This document shows positions 48,106 through 61,361 of a stretch of 64,000 nucleotides of DNA, one piece after another. The notes beneath the pieces are model-generated. The model was given only the letters and a program-made list of their open reading frames with translations. It searched no databases and was not told the DNA's origin. Source of the DNA: a virus. Numbering within the stretch: the stretch's first letter is position 1; each line of letters begins with the position of its first letter. Both the position numbers and the translations under genes were made by a program. The stretch lies in IMG/VR virus record IMGVR_UViG_3300042147_000025, positions 29,121 through 93,120 of that record; one strand, written 5' to 3'.

Positions 48106-48891
48106 ATGGGAAGTCACGCTAAACACTTTATCGAAATTATTGACGGTATCGAAGTCGAGCAACCAAGGAAGAAAACACGACGGACCCGTCAGGGTGGGAA
48201 ACCAGAAGCTGTTGCAGCTAAGTTTAAGGAAGAAAAAGAAATTCGCGTGAAGCCAATCACAGCTAAAACAGAAAATCAGAAGTTGTACCTTGACAGTCTG
48301 CAAAGCAATGCAATCACGGTCGGGAGAGGCAGTGCAGGTTCGGGAAAATCGTGGTGTGCGGCTAGTGTTGCAGCGAATAAGTACCTTAAAGGTGAAATTG
48401 ATCAGATCGTAGTAATGCGACCACTAGTTGGTATGGGTAAATCTTCAGGATTTTGGCCCGGCGACATTCGCGCCAAGTTGGAACCGTACCTTTTGCCGAT
48501 CTTGAATACAATTAAAGACACAATTGGTGCTGCAAAGTATGAAGCTGACTTTGGTAAGAGTATTTTGATTCAGCCAATGGAAGCGGTACGCGGTATGAAC
48601 TTCGATTCTCGGGTTTATGTAATCGTGGACGAAAGCCAGAACTGCACTCCAGATGAGATTCGCAGCCTAGTTACTCGGATGGCTTCAGGTAGCCAAGCAG
48701 CCTATTGCGGTGATGATAAGCAGCGGGATATTCCGGGTCTTTCTGGCATTCAATATCTTTGTGATTTGATTAAGAAACATAAGATTCCTAATTGTGGAGT
48801 TGTTGAATTTACACCAGCAGATATTGTGAGGAGTGGACTGACACGAATCTTTGTAGAAATTTTTGAGGAAGAAGGGCCATCGCCCCGTTAG
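48106..48891 (+). CDS. phoH: PhoH-family ATPase
   Basis: GSAGSGKS, RPLV, GFWPGD, PY, RGMNF, DESQN, GDDKQRD, DIVRS. Confidence 0.93.
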   Translation: MGSHAKHFIEIIDGIEVEQPRKKTRRTRQGGKPEAVAAKFKEEKEIRVKPITAKTENQKLYLDSLQSNAITVGRGSAGSGKSWCAASVAANKYLKGEIDQIVVMRPLVGMGKSSGFWPGDIRAKLEPYLLPILNTIKDTIGAAKYEADFGKSILIQPMEAVRGMNFDSRVYVIVDESQNCTPDEIRSLVTRMASGSQAAYCGDDKQRDIPGLSGIQYLCDLIKKHKIPNCGVVEFTPADIVRSGLTRIFVEIFEEEGPSPR

Positions 48892-48899
48892 GAGTTTAA

Positions 48900-49916
48900 A
48901 TGAAAGAGGATATAAAGGATATCACTGGGCAGCGGTTTGGAAGTCTAGTTGCAGTGGAACTAACCGACAAAAGAAGTTCTAGTAGAGCTGTAGTGTGGAA
49001 GTGCCAATGTGATTGTGGTAATGTTGTTGACGTTAATAGCAGCAGCTTGAGGCAGGGGCACACTAAATCGTGTGGTTGTTTTTCTTTTCGACCACGGAAA
49101 TATCAACCAGAGGAGGGAGTCACTTATGGTTATCTTACGTATGTCAATGAAGCACCTAGAATTGTAAGGCCCTCTAAAACTGTAAAAGCTGGTAATTTTA
49201 CATGTATTTGCGGAAAAGAAGTTGTTAAATCTTTCCAAGAAGTATGTAGTGGAAATATTACCTCTTGTGGTTGTATGAAGGGAAAGGCAAATATTAAAGA
49301 CATTACAGGAGAGAAGTTCAACCGACTTACTGCACTTAAGAGTACAGGAGTAATCAAGAACGGAGGTTATATTTGGACTTGTCAGTGTGATTGTGGGACA
49401 ATAAAAGATATACCAATCTCTGCACTAAACTCTGGACAAGTAAAGTCATGTGGCTGTGCTAAAATCACACACGGTATGACAAAAACACCAGCGTGGCGAT
49501 CTTGGGATAGTATGGTGACAAGAATCAAGGACGAAAAATGTAAGGAGTGGTATTGGGATGTCACTATTGATGCTAGGTGGCTTGAACCGGATGGGCAGGG
49601 TTTCATGAACTTTTATGAGGACATGGGTGAGCCTCCAGAAGGACATACGCTGAACAGAGTTCACGGAGCTAAGATTTACTCCAAAGAAACTTGTGAGTGG
49701 GCAACATTAAGCATGCAATCTTTTGATCAGAAACGCAGTAAAATGAATACTTCCGGTAGGACAGGAGTATATTTTAGTGAGAGTGGCTCCAAATGGGTTG
49801 CTCAGATTAAAAAGAACGGTATTGTAACTCAGGTCTACAGAGGTACGTCATTTGAAGAAGCATGTGCAGCGCGAACAGCAGCAGAAATTGAATATTATGG
49901 ATTCTCAAAGGAGTAA
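48900..49916 (+). CDS. HNH/AP2 homing endonuclease with repeated Cys modules
   Basis: DITGQRFG..W.CQCDCG..KSCGC repeats, FYEDMG, NTSGRTGV. Confidence 0.85.
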   Translation: MKEDIKDITGQRFGSLVAVELTDKRSSSRAVVWKCQCDCGNVVDVNSSSLRQGHTKSCGCFSFRPRKYQPEEGVTYGYLTYVNEAPRIVRPSKTVKAGNFTCICGKEVVKSFQEVCSGNITSCGCMKGKANIKDITGEKFNRLTALKSTGVIKNGGYIWTCQCDCGTIKDIPISALNSGQVKSCGCAKITHGMTKTPAWRSWDSMVTRIKDEKCKEWYWDVTIDARWLEPDGQGFMNFYEDMGEPPEGHTLNRVHGAKIYSKETCEWATLSMQSFDQKRSKMNTSGRTGVYFSESGSKWVAQIKKNGIVTQVYRGTSFEEACAARTAAEIEYYGFSKE

Positions 49917-49920
49917 GTAT

Positions 49921-50679
49921 ATGAGTGAAGATAAGTTTGTACCTATGATGGTTGAGCAGTGTGAAGTTTTTCAATCTAGTTACACTAACAATGTCTTTGA
50001 TATCATTCTTGATGACTATATTCGTGAACCTTCATACTACCGACAAGCTTTCCATGTGTTGCGAACGGCTCAGAAAGGGGATCGCGTAAATTTGATCATA
50101 AATAATGGCGGGGGATCTGTGAATTCCGCTATTATGTTTATAAATTTGATCGAAGAAACAGAAGCTGAGGTTCTGGCTGTCTTGGAGGGTGAGACTCATT
50201 CTGCTGCATCGATGATCGCACTTTCGGCTCACGGTGTACATGTCAAGCCTTTTGCATCTATGATGATTCATAACGCCACGTTTGGAACATTTAATACGGT
50301 GCAGAACGTTATCGATCATGTAAACTTTACAAGTACACAGACAGAAAAACTTATCCGCAAAGTCTATAAATCATTCCTCACGGAGCCGGAAATCGAGGAA
50401 GTAATCCGTAATCGTGAGATTTGGCTTACCGGAGAAGAGATTGGTGAACGGTTGGACGTTATGTTTGAAGCTCGTAAGTCCGAAGGGTGTGGCGACCCTA
50501 GCTGTACATCGTGCGGTCCTCAAGGTGATGACTTTGAAGACTTTGATCTTGAAGCCCTAATTGCTGAAAAAGTAGCTGAAGGGATTGAACAACACGAGAA
50601 AAATAAGGCAGCTAAAGAGAAAGCAGCCACTGCAAAATCAGCTAAAGCTTCAAAGAAAATTGTAGAAAAGGTCGAATAA
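49921..50679 (+). CDS. ClpP-like serine protease
   Basis: INNGGG, HSAASMI, MMIH, EIWL. Confidence 0.85.
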   Translation: MSEDKFVPMMVEQCEVFQSSYTNNVFDIILDDYIREPSYYRQAFHVLRTAQKGDRVNLIINNGGGSVNSAIMFINLIEETEAEVLAVLEGETHSAASMIALSAHGVHVKPFASMMIHNATFGTFNTVQNVIDHVNFTSTQTEKLIRKVYKSFLTEPEIEEVIRNREIWLTGEEIGERLDVMFEARKSEGCGDPSCTSCGPQGDDFEDFDLEALIAEKVAEGIEQHEKNKAAKEKAATAKSAKASKKIVEKVE

Positions 50680-50683
50680 TTCA

Positions 50684-50712
50684 TTGACAACGCATGTGGA
50701 GGGCTTTAAACT
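50684..50712 (+). promoter_or_regulatory. sigma70 promoter
   Basis: TTGACA-17-TAAACT, same boxes as 6436-6464. Confidence 0.75.
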
Positions 50713-50742
50713 AGACTCCACTAACACAAAGGAGAGAAATTT

Positions 50743-51664
50743 ATGATTAGCCGAGAAGAGATCGAAGAACTACTTGCAGAACAACAAGCTGACCTTGCTG
50801 CACAGGAAAAGTCAGAGAATTCTGAGGAGGAGGGATGAACATCTTTGACCAACTATATGAAGTACCAGACGAAGATGAGCACCTAGAACCAGATTTTAAC
50901 ATTGACCCTTTTATTTACTATGAATTAGACTTACACTACGCCCAAGGAGAATAACATGACCAGCTATATCTTAGTTAAATCTGACTACGGCCACAAAACA
51001 AATATTGGTGTATTTGACACACAAGAGAAAGCTGAGGCTTATCAGTCGAGGCTTGAGTTGGAGTTGTTTGATAATAGCAATCTTTGTGGTATTAATTTTG
51101 AGATTGAGGAGTTTAGTGTTCAATGAATTATGAAAGCGAAGTTATTGAAGGTTTGGAATCATCTATTGAAGGGTGGCTTTTGGGGGATGAGCAAGACTGT
51201 GTAGAGAATCTGGGAGAAGATGTTACATCCGCAGTTAAAGAAGCTTTGAATTATGAGTAGTGCATATTCAGCATTTGATTCTTTCTTGGATAAGTGTGTT
51301 GATGAGTATTACGAAGATACTGAAGAAGATCTAGAAACAGAAGAGTGGGATGGACCTTACCCGGAGGATGGTTACGATTATGACTACGAGTGAAAAGAAA
51401 ACTAAAGATCCTAAAGTAACAATTGTTGATTTTAATACTTTTACGGACTATGAGTTTATCCCCCCAGCAACCTTCTACATACTCAATGCTATGGGAGACT
51501 ACGTTTTTGTCCATACTGCATCAAGGGCTATTGCTCAAGAGTATATTGATTCTGTATATTCTAAGGGGCGTTATAAAATCGTTGCAAGTAAGCTGCAAAA
51601 GACAGTTAGTAAACTTGAAGGTGGTGGGTACTCCGTGACTGGAACGGAAACTAGGAAAAAGTAA
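50743..51664 (+). other. run of very short acidic ORFs followed by a ~94-aa CDS ending at 51664
   Basis: Successive strong RBS plus ATG sites after the promoter. Confidence 0.5.
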
Positions 51665-52155
51665 TGAAACTCAAACATCAACTTATGTACATGCGTATTG
51701 CAGAAGCTGCTGCTGAAACATCCTCAGGTGTCAGACTCAAGGTTGGTTGTTGCTTAGTCAAGAATAATGCAGTGATTGCTGTTTCTTATAATGGACTCCC
51801 AAGTTTCCTAGAAGGCCCACTGGAAGATAGGGTTTACAGTAATGGTGCAGGTGGTTGGATGGATGTTGAAGAGTTTAAAGAAATCTATCCCTACCAAGAC
51901 GAAGAAGGACATCACTACAAACTTGTTACTAAGCGAGAGTGCAGGCATGCCGAGAAAAACAGTCTTTTGGCACTGGCTAAAAGCAATGAGAGTGCAATCG
52001 GAGCTTCACTTTTCTGCACACACGCATGTTGTGAGCTTTGTTCAATTGATATCATTGACAGTGGGATTACAAAGGTCTATTATCGTAATGACTACCGAAG
52101 CACAGCGGGTCTTGAATACCTTCGTGCGAATAATGTAGAAGTAATTAAAATTTAA
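51664..52155 (+). CDS. dCMP deaminase
   Basis: KVGC, YNG, HAEKN, THACCELC zinc motif. Confidence 0.9.
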   Translation: MKLKHQLMYMRIAEAAAETSSGVRLKVGCCLVKNNAVIAVSYNGLPSFLEGPLEDRVYSNGAGGWMDVEEFKEIYPYQDEEGHHYKLVTKRECRHAEKNSLLALAKSNESAIGASLFCTHACCELCSIDIIDSGITKVYYRNDYRSTAGLEYLRANNVEVIKI

Positions 52156-52165
52156 GGAGAACAAA

Positions 52166-52609
52166 ATGTCTGACGTTGAAATGTACAAAGAGGTACAGGA
52201 AGCAAAGAAACTCTCTGACAAGTGGATTCAACCGGAGGAGATGATTGATACTAAAAAAGTTCAGTTGAAAAGTCTCACTGAGTTTGCCAAAGGTTTGGGA
52301 TATACACGTAATCTTTTACAAGGGTATTTTGCGAGCAACGACTACGACAACAAGAAACGTAGCACCGTTTCATTCCAGACAATGGTAAAATTGCACAATA
52401 ACTTCTATCAAGATTGGCATGGTGGTGATCGTTTTAAATCTCCATTTAATTTCAGCACCTACAAGATTCGTAAGGCCCGTGTAGGTAAGATTGTGCATAA
52501 AGTAAGCCTTACAATGTCTAAGAAAACTGGCTACATTCGAGCAGCCAGTAATATTGTAAGTTTTACACACCAAGAGTATGAAGGCTTCCTTGATCTTAAG
52601 TATCTGTGA
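52166..52609 (+). CDS. hypothetical protein
   Basis: AAGGAG RBS, 147 aa. Confidence 0.7.
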   Translation: MSDVEMYKEVQEAKKLSDKWIQPEEMIDTKKVQLKSLTEFAKGLGYTRNLLQGYFASNDYDNKKRSTVSFQTMVKLHNNFYQDWHGGDRFKSPFNFSTYKIRKARVGKIVHKVSLTMSKKTGYIRAASNIVSFTHQEYEGFLDLKYL

Positions 52610-52617
52610 GGTGAAAC

Positions 52618-52809
52618 ATGGACAGAAGTATTTTGTACCTCTTTTCTGATTCTTCTTGGATGTACGCATGTGAATGGAACCCTAAATTTCACGCAGACAA
52701 AGGAAAATACCACGAAGTAGTTGTGGGTCGTGGTTGGAGTTCCCGTGAAATCAGTGAAATGCTTAAAACTTATTATGAAGAAAATGCATCAACAATATTC
52801 GACCAATAG
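52618..52809 (+). CDS. hypothetical protein
   Basis: GAGGTG RBS. Confidence 0.6.
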   Translation: MDRSILYLFSDSSWMYACEWNPKFHADKGKYHEVVVGRGWSSREISEMLKTYYEENASTIFDQ

Positions 52810-52817
52810 AGATTTAT

Positions 52818-52852
52818 AGAGGGCTTGGGCATTGTGCTTGAGCCCTCTTTTT
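52818..52852 (+). terminator. intrinsic terminator
   Basis: AGAGGGCTTGGGC...GCTTGAGCCCTCT-TTTT. Confidence 0.75.
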
Positions 52853-52888
52853 GTTTATAATGTCTGTACAAATTAAATAGGAGGTTCT

Positions 52889-53419
52889 ATGAACAATTTA
52901 ACAAGTAAAGCTCGTATATTCTCCATAGCCGCGCACGAAGCTGTTCAACAAAAGAGAAAATACACTGGAGAGTCTTACTACCACCATCCAGCAGAGGTTG
53001 CAATGACTGTCTATGCTGCATATGGTACGGATAATATGATTGCAGCGGCATACCTACACGACGTACAGGAAGATTGCAACATTACAAACGAATTGATTGA
53101 GAAGGAGTTTGGAAAAGAAGTCGCTGAACTTGTTGGCTGGCTTTCAGATGTCTCTAAACCAGAAGATGGTAATCGTGCCAAACGTAAAGAGATTGATCGT
53201 ATGCACACAGCGCAGTCTTCACCACAAGCCAAAACAATCAAACTTGCAGACCTTATCTCAAACAGCAAGTCAATTCTTGAACATGACAAAGATTTCGCAA
53301 AGGTTTATATCAAAGAGAAAGAGTTGTTGCTTGAAGTGCTGACTGAAGGTGATGGTACGTTGTATGCACAGGCTAAAGATATTGTAGAGAAGGCTAAGAA
53401 GGAGCTTGGGATTGAATAA
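52889..53419 (+). CDS. HD-domain small alarmone hydrolase (Mesh1/SpoT-HD-like)
   Basis: AH..QKRKYTGESYYHHP.EVA, AAYLHDVQED, FG.EVA.LV, IKLADLISN. Confidence 0.88.
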   Translation: MNNLTSKARIFSIAAHEAVQQKRKYTGESYYHHPAEVAMTVYAAYGTDNMIAAAYLHDVQEDCNITNELIEKEFGKEVAELVGWLSDVSKPEDGNRAKRKEIDRMHTAQSSPQAKTIKLADLISNSKSILEHDKDFAKVYIKEKELLLEVLTEGDGTLYAQAKDIVEKAKKELGIE

Positions 53420-53854
53420 AATACAGCTAGAAAAGAATCTCACACTGTTGCTTAAAGACCTTTCCAGTGCAGACAAACGTTGCAAGAAGATTTCCAAAGC
53501 CTGTGGTCTAGAGGATAACCATCTTATTGAATATGCTATGGAACAAACTAAGCTTGTGCTTGATTACATTGAAAGTTTGAAAGAAGACCCTTGCACGGAA
53601 TGTGGCCTCACTGGTCAACATAAAATGTCATGTGATACACAATACAAGGATAAACAATGAACTTAGTTAAACAAAGAATTAAATGGGAGTATGAATATCA
53701 CTTTGGAAAAGAGCCTTGGTTTCCAGCCTTCTTAGATTACAAGAAGAATAAGGATTCAGAATCTTTCAGGTTGAATGCTGCCATGGAAGAGTTTTTCTGT
53801 TACACTATCGTACTTGAAGAGAAGCTTGCTCACCTAGAGGGAAAATTAAAATGA
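53406..53854 (+). other. two small hypothetical CDSs (53406-53660, 53657-53854)
   Basis: Coupled ORFs. Confidence 0.55.
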
Positions 53855-54519
53855 ATCCAGTAAAATACTTTAGTAAAAATTTCATAGGAAAAGACTTCGT
53901 ATGCGGCGATATTCACGGCTGCTTCAGCAAACTGCAAGAACAATTGTACGTAATTGGATTTGACGAAAAGGTTGACCGTTTGTTCTGTGTAGGCGACTTA
54001 GTAGATCGTGGTCCTGAGTCTCAAGAGTTCTTTACTTGGTTGCGTAAACCTTGGTTCCATTCTGTACGTGGTAATCATGAACAAATGGTTATTGACTCCG
54101 TTCGTGAAGGTGAGCTTGGTCATTCTTCAGGGATGCATGCAATGAATGGGGGTATGTGGTTATATGGGCTGTCTACAGTTGAACAGCAGTGTTATGCACT
54201 GGAAATGGAAGAGATACCTCTAGCTATTGAAGTAGAGACAGCTAAGGGTTTAGTTGGTATTATTCATGCTGAGTGTCCGCTAGGTGATTGGAATCTTTTC
54301 AAATCAATATATGAAAATAACAAAGATCGATTTGATGCTGTTGCTATGTGGGCACGTACTAAGATTACAAATGAAGATAGTTCGGAAGTTGCAGGACTTT
54401 ACAAACTGTACGTAGGTCACACACCAATGAATGATGCAAAGACTCTGGGTAACGTAGAGTATATTGATACTGGTGCGTGTTTCCGTGGTGGTAAGTTTAC
54501 TATTGTGCAGATTAACTAG
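53851..54519 (+). CDS. Ser/Thr protein phosphatase (lambda NinI/PphA-like metallophosphoesterase)
   Basis: GDIHG, VGDLVDRG, RGNHE, HA, GHT, IDTG. Confidence 0.92.
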   Translation: MNPVKYFSKNFIGKDFVCGDIHGCFSKLQEQLYVIGFDEKVDRLFCVGDLVDRGPESQEFFTWLRKPWFHSVRGNHEQMVIDSVREGELGHSSGMHAMNGGMWLYGLSTVEQQCYALEMEEIPLAIEVETAKGLVGIIHAECPLGDWNLFKSIYENNKDRFDAVAMWARTKITNEDSSEVAGLYKLYVGHTPMNDAKTLGNVEYIDTGACFRGGKFTIVQIN

Positions 54520-55510: not shown

Positions 55511-56018
55511 ATGTTAGTTCTTATATATCTGATTGTTGCGTTAGTTGTCCTATATGTAGAGGCTATAAATTGCTATAGAGATAAAGTGAAGTTAAATCTT
55601 GTACATGAGGCTGTATTCTCAGTTTTGTGGATTGTAACTCTTCCTCTGGCCATTTACACTATTTGGAAGGAGTAGAAATGAGTTTATTTGAAGACTGGTA
55701 TCTCACTTATTTCCAAGACTTTATTGATCTTGAGGAAGATCTTATAAAAAATGAAGATGGGGAGTATCTAGACGTGCGGGTGGATTTAATGCACAAAGCC
55801 TTTCTTGCTGGGCAAGTGTTGTGTGAGGAATTTAAATGACCAGAGAATATTCCCATGACAGAGAAGTGATTAAGGACTTCATCCGCTTCTTGTCAGATCA
55901 GCATAAAGCTTGTGTAATTCAGTTTCCTGATGAGTTTGCAGCTAATAGTTATGTTAACTATCGTTTTATTAACGTTTCAGAAATATTGGAAGAATTTATT
56001 GAGTGGAGAAAGCAGTGA
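55511..56018 (+). other. three small hypothetical CDSs
   Basis: Coupled ORFs ending at 55675, 55839 and 56018. Confidence 0.55.
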
Positions 56019-56848
56019 GCATTCAAATGCAAAACCAGACAATCATGTTAGGGAATCAGTACATATACGTTTCTATTAAGCCGGGGAAGGTTGGGACTGT
56101 TCCTCTGTTGATCATGAATGGCATTGGAGCGAATACAACTTTACTGACTCCTTTTGTCGAAGCTATGCACGAGTCGAATCCTGATATTGAGATTATTACT
56201 TTCGATGTACCGGGAGTTGGTGGTAGTTCTACACCTTCTCTTCCGTACAGGTTTAGTGGCTTGGCTAAGACCGTTGGACAAATGCTTGATTGTCTCAACT
56301 ACGCACAAGTAGATGTACTTGGCCTAAGCTGGGGTGGATTTTTGGCGTGCCAGTTCGCATATGATTACCCACAAAGATGTAAGAAACTAATCCTATGTGC
56401 TACAGCAACAGGCGTAACATCCGTTCCACCTAGTTTTAAGGTGTTGTCGCTGATGGCTTCACCTAGACGCTACTCTGACTCAGCTTATATGATTGAAGTT
56501 GCACCTCTGATCTACGGTGGAAAGTTTAGAACTGATCCTGAGCTAGCAGTTAAATATGCACAGAAGATGGAAGCTAATAGGTCTGAGAATAAAGCTAATG
56601 CCGCTGGATACAAGTTTCAACAGTTAGCTATTTGTTGGTGGAGCAGCTTGTGGATGCTTCCTTACATTAAACAGCCTACACTTTTGCTCGGTGGTAGTGA
56701 TGATCCAATCATTCCATTGTTGAATATGAAGATTATGAAAGGGTTGATTCCTAATTCTAAACTTCATGTAGTGGATGACGGACATCTTTTCCTTCTTTGT
56801 TCAACTGATGTAGTAACACCTATTATTAATGAGTTTTTGGGGAACTAG
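56015..56848 (+). CDS. phaZ: intracellular mcl-poly(3-hydroxyalkanoate) depolymerase
   Basis: PLLIMNGIGAN, FDVPGVGGSSTP..PYRF.GLAK, GLSWGG, MASPRRY, IYGG.FR.DP, QPTL.L.G.DDPIIPL.NM, DDGHLFL. Confidence 0.9.
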   Translation: MSIQMQNQTIMLGNQYIYVSIKPGKVGTVPLLIMNGIGANTTLLTPFVEAMHESNPDIEIITFDVPGVGGSSTPSLPYRFSGLAKTVGQMLDCLNYAQVDVLGLSWGGFLACQFAYDYPQRCKKLILCATATGVTSVPPSFKVLSLMASPRRYSDSAYMIEVAPLIYGGKFRTDPELAVKYAQKMEANRSENKANAAGYKFQQLAICWWSSLWMLPYIKQPTLLLGGSDDPIIPLLNMKIMKGLIPNSKLHVVDDGHLFLLCSTDVVTPIINEFLGN

Positions 56849-60044: not shown

Positions 60045-61361
60045 TTGACTAAAGTAATTGTATATGACCAGCTTCCCGGAACGGGTAAGTCAACACGAAT
60101 GATTGACAAGATAAATAACTCCGACAAAGATCGGAGATTTATTGTTGTTACTCCTTTTCTAAAAGAGTGCCATAGGTATGCAGGTACTACACCAGATATT
60201 GACAGCGGAGATAAACAACTGCCACTGAAAGATACACAAGGGAATATCATTTACAATGGAAATGGCTGTAGTGCATCTGGACGTAGGTTTGAACACCCTG
60301 TGTCTGGATACCGAACTAAGGTAGAGCACATAGCAAAGCTTGTACACGAAGGACGTGACATTGTAACAACACATGCTGCACTGAAGCTCTTTACACCAGA
60401 GACAGTTAAGGATGTAAAAGATGCTGGCTACACTCTTGTAATTGATGAAGAATTAGAATGCATCAGACCGCACCCATGTAAGATGCACAGACGTAAGATG
60501 TTGTTAGGAAGTGGAGCTGTGTATGAGGATGCTTTGGGTTTACTTCGCTGGAATGAAGACTATGATACAAGTGATGATGTTAAGGAGCTAGATGGTTCCG
60601 GTTTTAGTTGGGATATGCAGATTAAATCTTTATGTGATAATGGAAGTCTTGTACTGATTGAAGATGAGAAAGGGAATCGTGATCTGTTCATGTGGGAGTA
60701 TCCTATTGAATTCATCAAAGCATTTGATTCTGTAGAAGTGCTTACCTACATGTTTGAGGGCTCTGTCTTTCACAAATATCTTGACTACTACGGAATTCAG
60801 CACGAGACAATAAGGGGAATTCAACTACCAAGTAATGTGTTTGATTTAATTAGGGTTGTAGATAATCCAAAGATGAATCGTATTGGTGATAGATGGGATA
60901 GTTTTACCGTAGGGGATCAGAAGAGACAGACTAAAGTTAGTGCTCTATCTCAGACAGTAAGGTCTAACCTATACAATTACTTTAACAACAGTACATATGG
61001 GAAGTCGAAGACTGATGAAAGGCTTTGGACTTGTCTTGGTGAGTCTGTTAGTATTTTTAAAGGTGCTGGTTATACTAAACGTCACATTGCTCATAACACC
61101 AAAGCCACCAATGACTATGCAAACAGTAATCAGCTAGCTTATATGTACAATGCTCACATGCATCCAGAGCCTTACAAATATCTACTGGGACGTGGTACTG
61201 AGTTTGCACCTAGTCAAGAGAGGTATTCAATAACAGAGCTTTTACAGTGGACTTACAGGAGTAGTGTACGAAATGATGAACCAATCAACCTGTATATTCC
61301 TAGTGTTAGGATGAGAGGTTTGTTAGAGAAATGGATGAGTGGAAATATGTTTACTAATTAA
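60045..61361 (+). CDS. SF2 / DEAD-like helicase or origin-binding ATPase
   Basis: PGTGKST, VVTP, TTHA, LVIDEE, LTYMF, ELLQW.YRS.VR. Confidence 0.75.
   Translation: MTKVIVYDQLPGTGKSTRMIDKINNSDKDRRFIVVTPFLKECHRYAGTTPDIDSGDKQLPLKDTQGNIIYNGNGCSASGRRFEHPVSGYRTKVEHIAKLVHEGRDIVTTHAALKLFTPETVKDVKDAGYTLVIDEELECIRPHPCKMHRRKMLLGSGAVYEDALGLLRWNEDYDTSDDVKELDGSGFSWDMQIKSLCDNGSLVLIEDEKGNRDLFMWEYPIEFIKAFDSVEVLTYMFEGSVFHKYLDYYGIQHETIRGIQLPSNVFDLIRVVDNPKMNRIGDRWDSFTVGDQKRQTKVSALSQTVRSNLYNYFNNSTYGKSKTDERLWTCLGESVSIFKGAGYTKRHIAHNTKATNDYANSNQLAYMYNAHMHPEPYKYLLGRGTEFAPSQERYSITELLQWTYRSSVRNDEPINLYIPSVRMRGLLEKWMSGNMFTN

Follow-up and report, generated by a model that had tools for sequence, protein, structure and literature searches.

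An accessory gene of a lytic-type myovirus encodes a probable intracellular mcl-PHA depolymerase of the Pseudomonas PhaZ family

The point of reference for the gene described here is PhaZ of Pseudomonas putida KT2440 (PhaZ_KT), in which the catalytic triad is formed by Ser102, Asp221, and His248, and an FNGIG loop (residues 34–38) contains an essential asparagine, Asn35. The enzyme has a lid (residues 133–192), the deletion of which abolishes activity, a hydrophobic hinge with the sequence YYWQLF (residues 190–195), and a disordered C-terminal tail (residues 266–283). Engineered changes in the lid have so far destroyed activity (PMC12504323). Among viruses, a prophage of the cyanobacterium Gloeobacter carries an uncharacterised candidate gene for a polyhydroxybutyrate depolymerase, which was proposed to be an auxiliary metabolic gene (2026 preprint, PMC13317609). 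That gene is virus-borne, as is the one reported here, but it encodes a PHB depolymerase and resides in a prophage, and the two are likened by description only. Literature searches, which reached a minority of the subscription journals, turned up no work on an mcl-PHA depolymerase from a phage. In records of cultured phages a single homologue was found, ORF269 of the Ralstonia jumbo phages RP12 and RP31 (L090:3980–4795), where it is annotated as an esterase/lipase or as a hypothetical protein. The Ralstonia host of these phages makes short-chain PHB.

The DNA analysed here, referred to as the window, is a stretch of 64,000 nucleotides that corresponds to bases 29121–93120 of the IMG/VR virus record IMGVR_UViG_3300042147_000025. 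The source record, 93,120 bp in length, carries direct terminal repeats and has a completeness rating of 100%. Large ORFs of this virus match the terminase large subunit (TerL), head protease, tail sheath, baseplate wedge, tape measure, tail fibres, and ribonucleotide reductase. The terminase together with the sheath, the baseplate, the tape measure, and the tail fibres identifies the phage, a lytic-type virus of 93 kb, as a myovirus. No phage record was recovered by megablast with the 12 kb around the gene of interest.

A long ORF is open on the + strand from 56003/56015 to 56848. As judged from the sequence, its most likely start is the GTG at 56015. A predicted GGAG ribosome-binding site (56005–56008, + strand) lies 6 nt upstream of this codon, and the codon and the stop of the ORF before it (55836–56018) overlap as GTGA; the same arrangement of GGAG and GTGA recurs in the relatives L002, L092, L094, and L095. 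The coding sequence (56015–56848, + strand; 277 amino acids plus stop), hereafter phaZ, was assigned from the ORF, the TIGR02240 family model, and an AF2 model, and its product is an alpha/beta hydrolase with a lid. The original prediction had described a full-length hydrolase with four motifs, and indeed the ORF is intact and each motif is found where it had been placed. Both the start and the stop of phaZ overlap neighbouring phage ORFs. The GC content of the gene is 0.418 (GC3 0.381), close to the value of 0.411 for the window, so the phage codon style attributed to it was right. The absence of phaC genes was also correctly predicted: a search with the PHA synthase model TIGR01839 gave no match anywhere in the 93,120-bp genome. 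Given the terminal repeats, the 100% completeness, and the myovirus genes, phaZ does not represent host contamination.

The assignment to PHA depolymerases was examined with family models and sequence searches. The top curated family for the phage protein is not a generic hydrolase family; it is NCBIfam TIGR02240, the poly(3-hydroxyalkanoate) depolymerase equivalog, with a score of 329.1 bits (cut-off 250.6), and the second-best NCBIfam family reaches 84 bits. Known Pseudomonas PhaZ proteins score 606–634 bits on TIGR02240, about twice as much as the phage protein. In Pfam only generic alpha/beta-hydrolase families were matched, and in PHROGs an 'esterase/lipase' family. Among 1.84 billion cluster representatives searched exhaustively with HMMER, the best match was a Halopseudomonas 'poly(3-hydroxyalkanoate) depolymerase' with 54% identity. 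When species genomes were searched with an alignment as the query, the best 80 loci among the matches listed were all from Pseudomonas or Halopseudomonas (53–56% identity); the scan queried with the phage protein alone gave no match. The phage protein is 55% identical over 268 residues to PhaZ of P. plecoglossicida (locus L019), a putida-group orthologue of PhaZ_KT that scores 630 bits on TIGR02240 and is encoded between two class II PHA synthase genes. L019 is the sole cellular locus whose phaC-phaZ-phaC arrangement was checked with family models, and the ORFs of a Halopseudomonas locus (L086) are arranged in the same way. The closest cellular relatives among the matches listed are Pseudomonas and Halopseudomonas enzymes of the kind encoded between phaC1 and phaC2, as had been proposed. 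Taken together, there is strong evidence that the phage protein belongs to the PhaZ family.

The distribution of this family was surveyed in 301 sampled Pseudomonas species genomes, a tally that takes in the unpublished genomes G128 and G180, which enter no other result. In 280 of the 301 the family scores above the TIGR02240 cut-off, and no control genome exceeds it. The remaining 21 genomes have no match at E ≤ 1e-60, and only five of the 301 contain two TIGR02240 matches. Apart from P. lini CC269, described below, these are G162, G213, G291, and G319, each with two matches at E ≤ 1e-60; the better of the two is itself weak (about 1e-110) in G213 and G319.

The active site of PhaZ_KT has its counterparts at homologous positions in the phage protein. 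Ser105, in the GLSWGG nucleophile elbow (residues 103–108; 56321–56338, + strand), corresponds to Ser102; Asp230, in DDP (residues 229–231; 56699–56707, + strand), to the catalytic Asp221; and His257, in DDGHLFL (residues 254–260; 56774–56794, + strand), to the catalytic His248. All three residues are invariant or almost invariant across an alignment of 24 homologues and another of 114. The NGIGAN loop (residues 35–40; 56117–56134, + strand) follows strand beta3, and Asn35, the counterpart of the essential asparagine in the FNGIG loop, is retained in the phage sequence MNGIG at 34–38. A lid domain of five helices (about residues 136–201; 56420–56617, + strand), equivalent to residues 133–192 of PhaZ_KT, is located between beta6 and beta7 as in that enzyme. 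The AF2 model, built on 114 homologues, has a pLDDT of 96.3 and the canonical topology, with the nucleophile at the elbow between the strand at 99–104 and the helix at 106–117, and the aspartate and histidine after the strands at 222–227 and 248–253. Residues 6–22 form core strands (pLDDT 89–97) and there is no hydrophobic leader. Since the N-terminus belongs to the core sheet, the model predicts a cytoplasmic protein with no signal peptide, a further likeness to PhaZ_KT. A Foldseek search against the PDB returned generic esterases, lactonases, and one Bacillus PHB depolymerase (TM about 0.8), and no structure of an intracellular mcl-PHA depolymerase was among the PDB matches from structure and sequence searches. 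Because these fold matches are generic, the fold search cannot discriminate between substrates.

The phage protein also departs from PhaZ_KT in several respects. It contains a 3-residue insertion at positions 52–54 relative to the PhaZ_KT-type alignment and, in the lid, an insertion of 6–7 residues identified by alignment (the EANRSENKANAA region; 56570–56605, + strand). The hinge reads YKFQQL (56609–56626, + strand) in place of YYWQLF: the tyrosine, an aromatic residue, and the glutamine are retained and the remainder is changed; other viral copies have YYYQ. The disordered C-terminal tail (residues 266–283 of PhaZ_KT) is missing, and the substitutions A106F, G136P, and V182M are present. In addition, the phage gene has no phaC1, phaC2, or phaD neighbours and falls in a sister lineage on the virus side of the tree.

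This virus-side lineage is large. More than 100 clusters with 56–92% identity were found in a collection of 5.8 billion proteins, many of them on contigs of 80–92 kb, and 30 viral loci with phaZ were found in IMG/VR. The viral records that bear the gene are 48–54 kb, 81–92 kb, 116 kb, 228 kb, and 284 kb in size, and many have terminal repeats and 100% completeness. None of 25 such records contained a PHA synthase in a TIGR01839 search. These uncultured phages resemble the window's phage in carrying a PhaZ of the same viral lineage with no PHA synthase and in coming from mostly similar samples. They differ from it in TerL, which is either unrelated or 34–44% identical, and in GC content, which ranges from 0.39 to 0.62.

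A maximum-likelihood tree of 55 rows, in which metagenomic rows were counted as viral from contig size and tree position, served to place the phage protein relative to host PhaZ. It belongs to one well-supported clade with the chromosomal enzymes, a PhaZ sensu stricto clade (support 99/97) that comprises chromosomal Pseudomonas and Halopseudomonas PhaZ and all viral rows. The chromosomal proteins form a group of 15 rows (100/99), and the viral rows are joined at their base with weak support (81/48). On the virus side are the low-GC myoviruses of about 90 kb, which include the window's phage, high-GC phages of 48–91 kb, and jumbo phages of 228–284 kb. The window's PhaZ lies within a low-GC clade of 15 rows (100/99), and a wider clade of 21 rows (100/98) takes in the jumbo-phage copies. 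The lid insertion is present across the members of this wider clade; beyond the window's copy it is common only to the jumbo-phage and P. lini copies. ORF269 of RP12/RP31 differs in its placement: it is 47% identical to the phage protein and scores 291 bits on TIGR02240, but branches with other hydrolases, outside the clade of Pseudomonas-type PhaZ.

As placed by the sequence tree, then, phage PhaZ is sister to the sampled diversity of Pseudomonas PhaZ and is not nested within it. A position outside this diversity would mean that the gene was captured long ago or that a fast-evolving lineage has been pulled towards the root. Rather than a one-off capture, the gene represents a large, virus-specific PhaZ lineage common to unrelated phages. 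Among the phage copies dN/dS is 0.08–0.17; the gene is under purifying selection and is selectively maintained.

Within its own group of phages, phaZ is an accessory gene, since both it and most of the early region are missing from a complete phage whose TerL is 86% identical. Phages whose PhaZ is 83–92% identical have TerL proteins that are only 34–44% identical, with one exception at 98%, which indicates that the history of the early region differs from that of the packaging module. The phages with this pairing of high PhaZ and low TerL identity are G001, G003, G004, and G005 (the records of loci L091, L004, L094, and L095, respectively). An in-frame TAA interrupts the TerL match of G004, and in G007, a further phage with phaZ, the TerL match falls into two pieces. 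In eight related viral contigs from other samples phaZ keeps a constant relative place, and its neighbours come and go. It is thus a host-type metabolic gene in a complete virus genome, with phage neighbours on both sides and variable presence among relatives, the features by which an auxiliary metabolic gene is recognised.

Upstream of phaZ, an array of + strand genes (48106–54519) constitutes a metabolic and takeover set. Domain matches identify a PhoH-like ATPase (48106), a ClpP-like protease (49852), a dCMP deaminase (51664), and a calcineurin-like metallophosphatase (53851), all on the + strand. A strong terminator-like hairpin with a 14-bp stem and a T run (52818–52848, + strand) marks the upstream edge of the co-directional array that holds phaZ, and no comparable + strand site occurs from 52848 until 60119–60136. 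Directly after this hairpin, 2.6 kb upstream of phaZ, is the gene for a 176-residue protein (52889–53419, + strand) with an HD_4 domain (E 1e-15), an HD domain of the (p)ppGpp-hydrolase type; the sequence would allow this protein to be a small alarmone hydrolase. Promoter-like sites were no more frequent than expected by chance (51 versus 47 in shuffled sequences), and hence no promoter is claimed. The 60-residue ORF that precedes phaZ (55836–56018, + strand), with which the GTGA overlap couples phaZ in translation as read from the sequence, has no family match. Its homologues (61–83% identity) are found in most low-GC relatives and in none of the other PhaZ-bearing phage lineages. A role as fixed partner of PhaZ was considered for this ORF and rejected, as it does not always adjoin phaZ and is confined to low-GC phages.

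The stretch is also present in rhizosphere metagenomes from three further studies; no RNA run is among the sequencing runs listed as containing it. By TerL and major capsid protein, the closest cultured phages are M1, phiPMW, and SYP, which infect environmental Pseudomonas, at only 38–43% identity. A second line of evidence comes from P. lini CC269, which has a native PhaZ (606 bits on TIGR02240) and a second, phage-type copy (333 bits; L010:5004–5816, G028:C5:349138–349929). The second copy has a GC content of 0.476 in a background of 0.55–0.58 and adjoins genes for UDP-galactopyranose mutase, a glycosyltransferase, and an epimerase, which belong to polysaccharide synthesis. Its nesting in the viral clade, together with its lid insertion, makes a transfer of phaZ from phage to host likely on sequence grounds. 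The kinship with cultured phages, the rhizosphere habitat, and the P. lini copy are circumstantial, and in combination they make a host of the Pseudomonas group likely.

On this evidence, the accessory gene probably encodes a serine hydrolase of the cytoplasm that belongs to the Pseudomonas-type family of intracellular mcl-PHA depolymerases, and its presence suggests that the phage may tap the PHA store of its host during infection. The enzyme would be made during infection from the + strand array of host-takeover and metabolic genes, would bind PHA granules of the host, and would cut the polyester to (R)-3-hydroxyalkanoic acids through Ser105, Asp230, and His257 under the lid. Acyl-CoA synthetase and beta-oxidation of the host would then convert these acids to acetyl-CoA and reducing power. 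In this way the phage may draw carbon and energy from rhizosphere cells that are rich in carbon but limited in N or P, bypassing the regulation of the host's own phaZ. Hydrolysis of granules to feed beta-oxidation is inferred from the known function of the family and the determinants retained in the phage protein; the substrate, timing of expression, route of the products, fitness benefit, and Pseudomonas host are likewise deductions. The half-size TIGR02240 score, the altered hinge, the insertion in a lid whose alteration abolished activity in PhaZ_KT, the missing C-terminal tail, the three fixed differences from cellular PhaZ, A106F among them, and the generic fold matches are points against this assignment.

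PHA could be degraded for a physical benefit, if removal of granules, which can occupy much of the cell, were to free space for replication and assembly, ease lysis, or stop virions from sticking to the hydrophobic granules once the cell has lysed. The evidence for the identity of the enzyme serves such a role equally well, and the occurrence of phaZ in very different phages, including jumbo phages of 228–284 kb that need much cytoplasmic room, would fit it. However, phaZ is found among metabolic and takeover genes and not beside lysis genes, and we regard a purely physical benefit as improbable. The sequence does not separate physical from nutritional use, and the two are not exclusive.

A shift of substrate is comparably unlikely, in which a PhaZ-derived esterase would act on another ester (lipids, acyl esters, or lactones) and be inactive on PHA. 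The generic Pfam and PHROGs assignments are what such an enzyme would give, and the RP12 homologue, which passes the TIGR02240 cut-off from outside the PhaZ clade, indicates that this cut-off is not substrate-specific. The viral clade is, moreover, separate from the cellular one, with differences that are fixed close to the active site and within the lid, together with the changed hinge and the lost tail. Yet only three positions are fixed differently between the viral and cellular clades (A106F, which adjoins the nucleophile elbow, G136P, and V182M), and the lid is conserved to the same degree as the core in the viral clade (0.73 compared with 0.72–0.74). The closest relatives in every search are bona fide PhaZ proteins, and the cellular family is largely confined to mcl-PHA producers, as the Pseudomonas survey and its control genomes indicate.

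The last alternative, that phaZ is misassembled host DNA or a decaying passenger gene, is effectively refuted: although the record is a metagenome assembly, the gene has the GC content of the phage, far from the 60% of Pseudomonas, its start and stop overlap phage neighbours, its frame is intact with dN/dS of about 0.1, and it holds its relative place in eight related contigs, in a genome with terminal repeats and 100% completeness.

Hydrolysis of host PHA for carbon and energy is therefore the function that we favour for the phage enzyme. More tentatively, and with the balance of our judgement slightly against it, mobilisation of PHA stores could be a widespread strategy across unrelated phages, in which a virus-specific PhaZ is exchanged among Pseudomonas-type phages of 48–284 kb, passes occasionally back to bacteria, as in P. 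lini, and decides replication in carbon-loaded, nutrient-limited rhizosphere cells. On that view, the enzyme of the present phage might act together with the neighbouring starvation-related proteins, namely the HD_4 protein that resembles alarmone hydrolases, the phosphatase, and PhoH. The viral clade also constitutes a large natural library of predicted lidded intracellular mcl-PHA depolymerases, with lid insertions, altered hinges, and tail-less forms, which would be useful for recycling mcl-PHA bioplastics by enzymes. Should the protein act as proposed, granules of storage polymer would be a resource that phages exploit, and this would provide a testable handle on phage growth in soil and rhizosphere bacteria that are short of nutrients and on the viral redirection of stored carbon.
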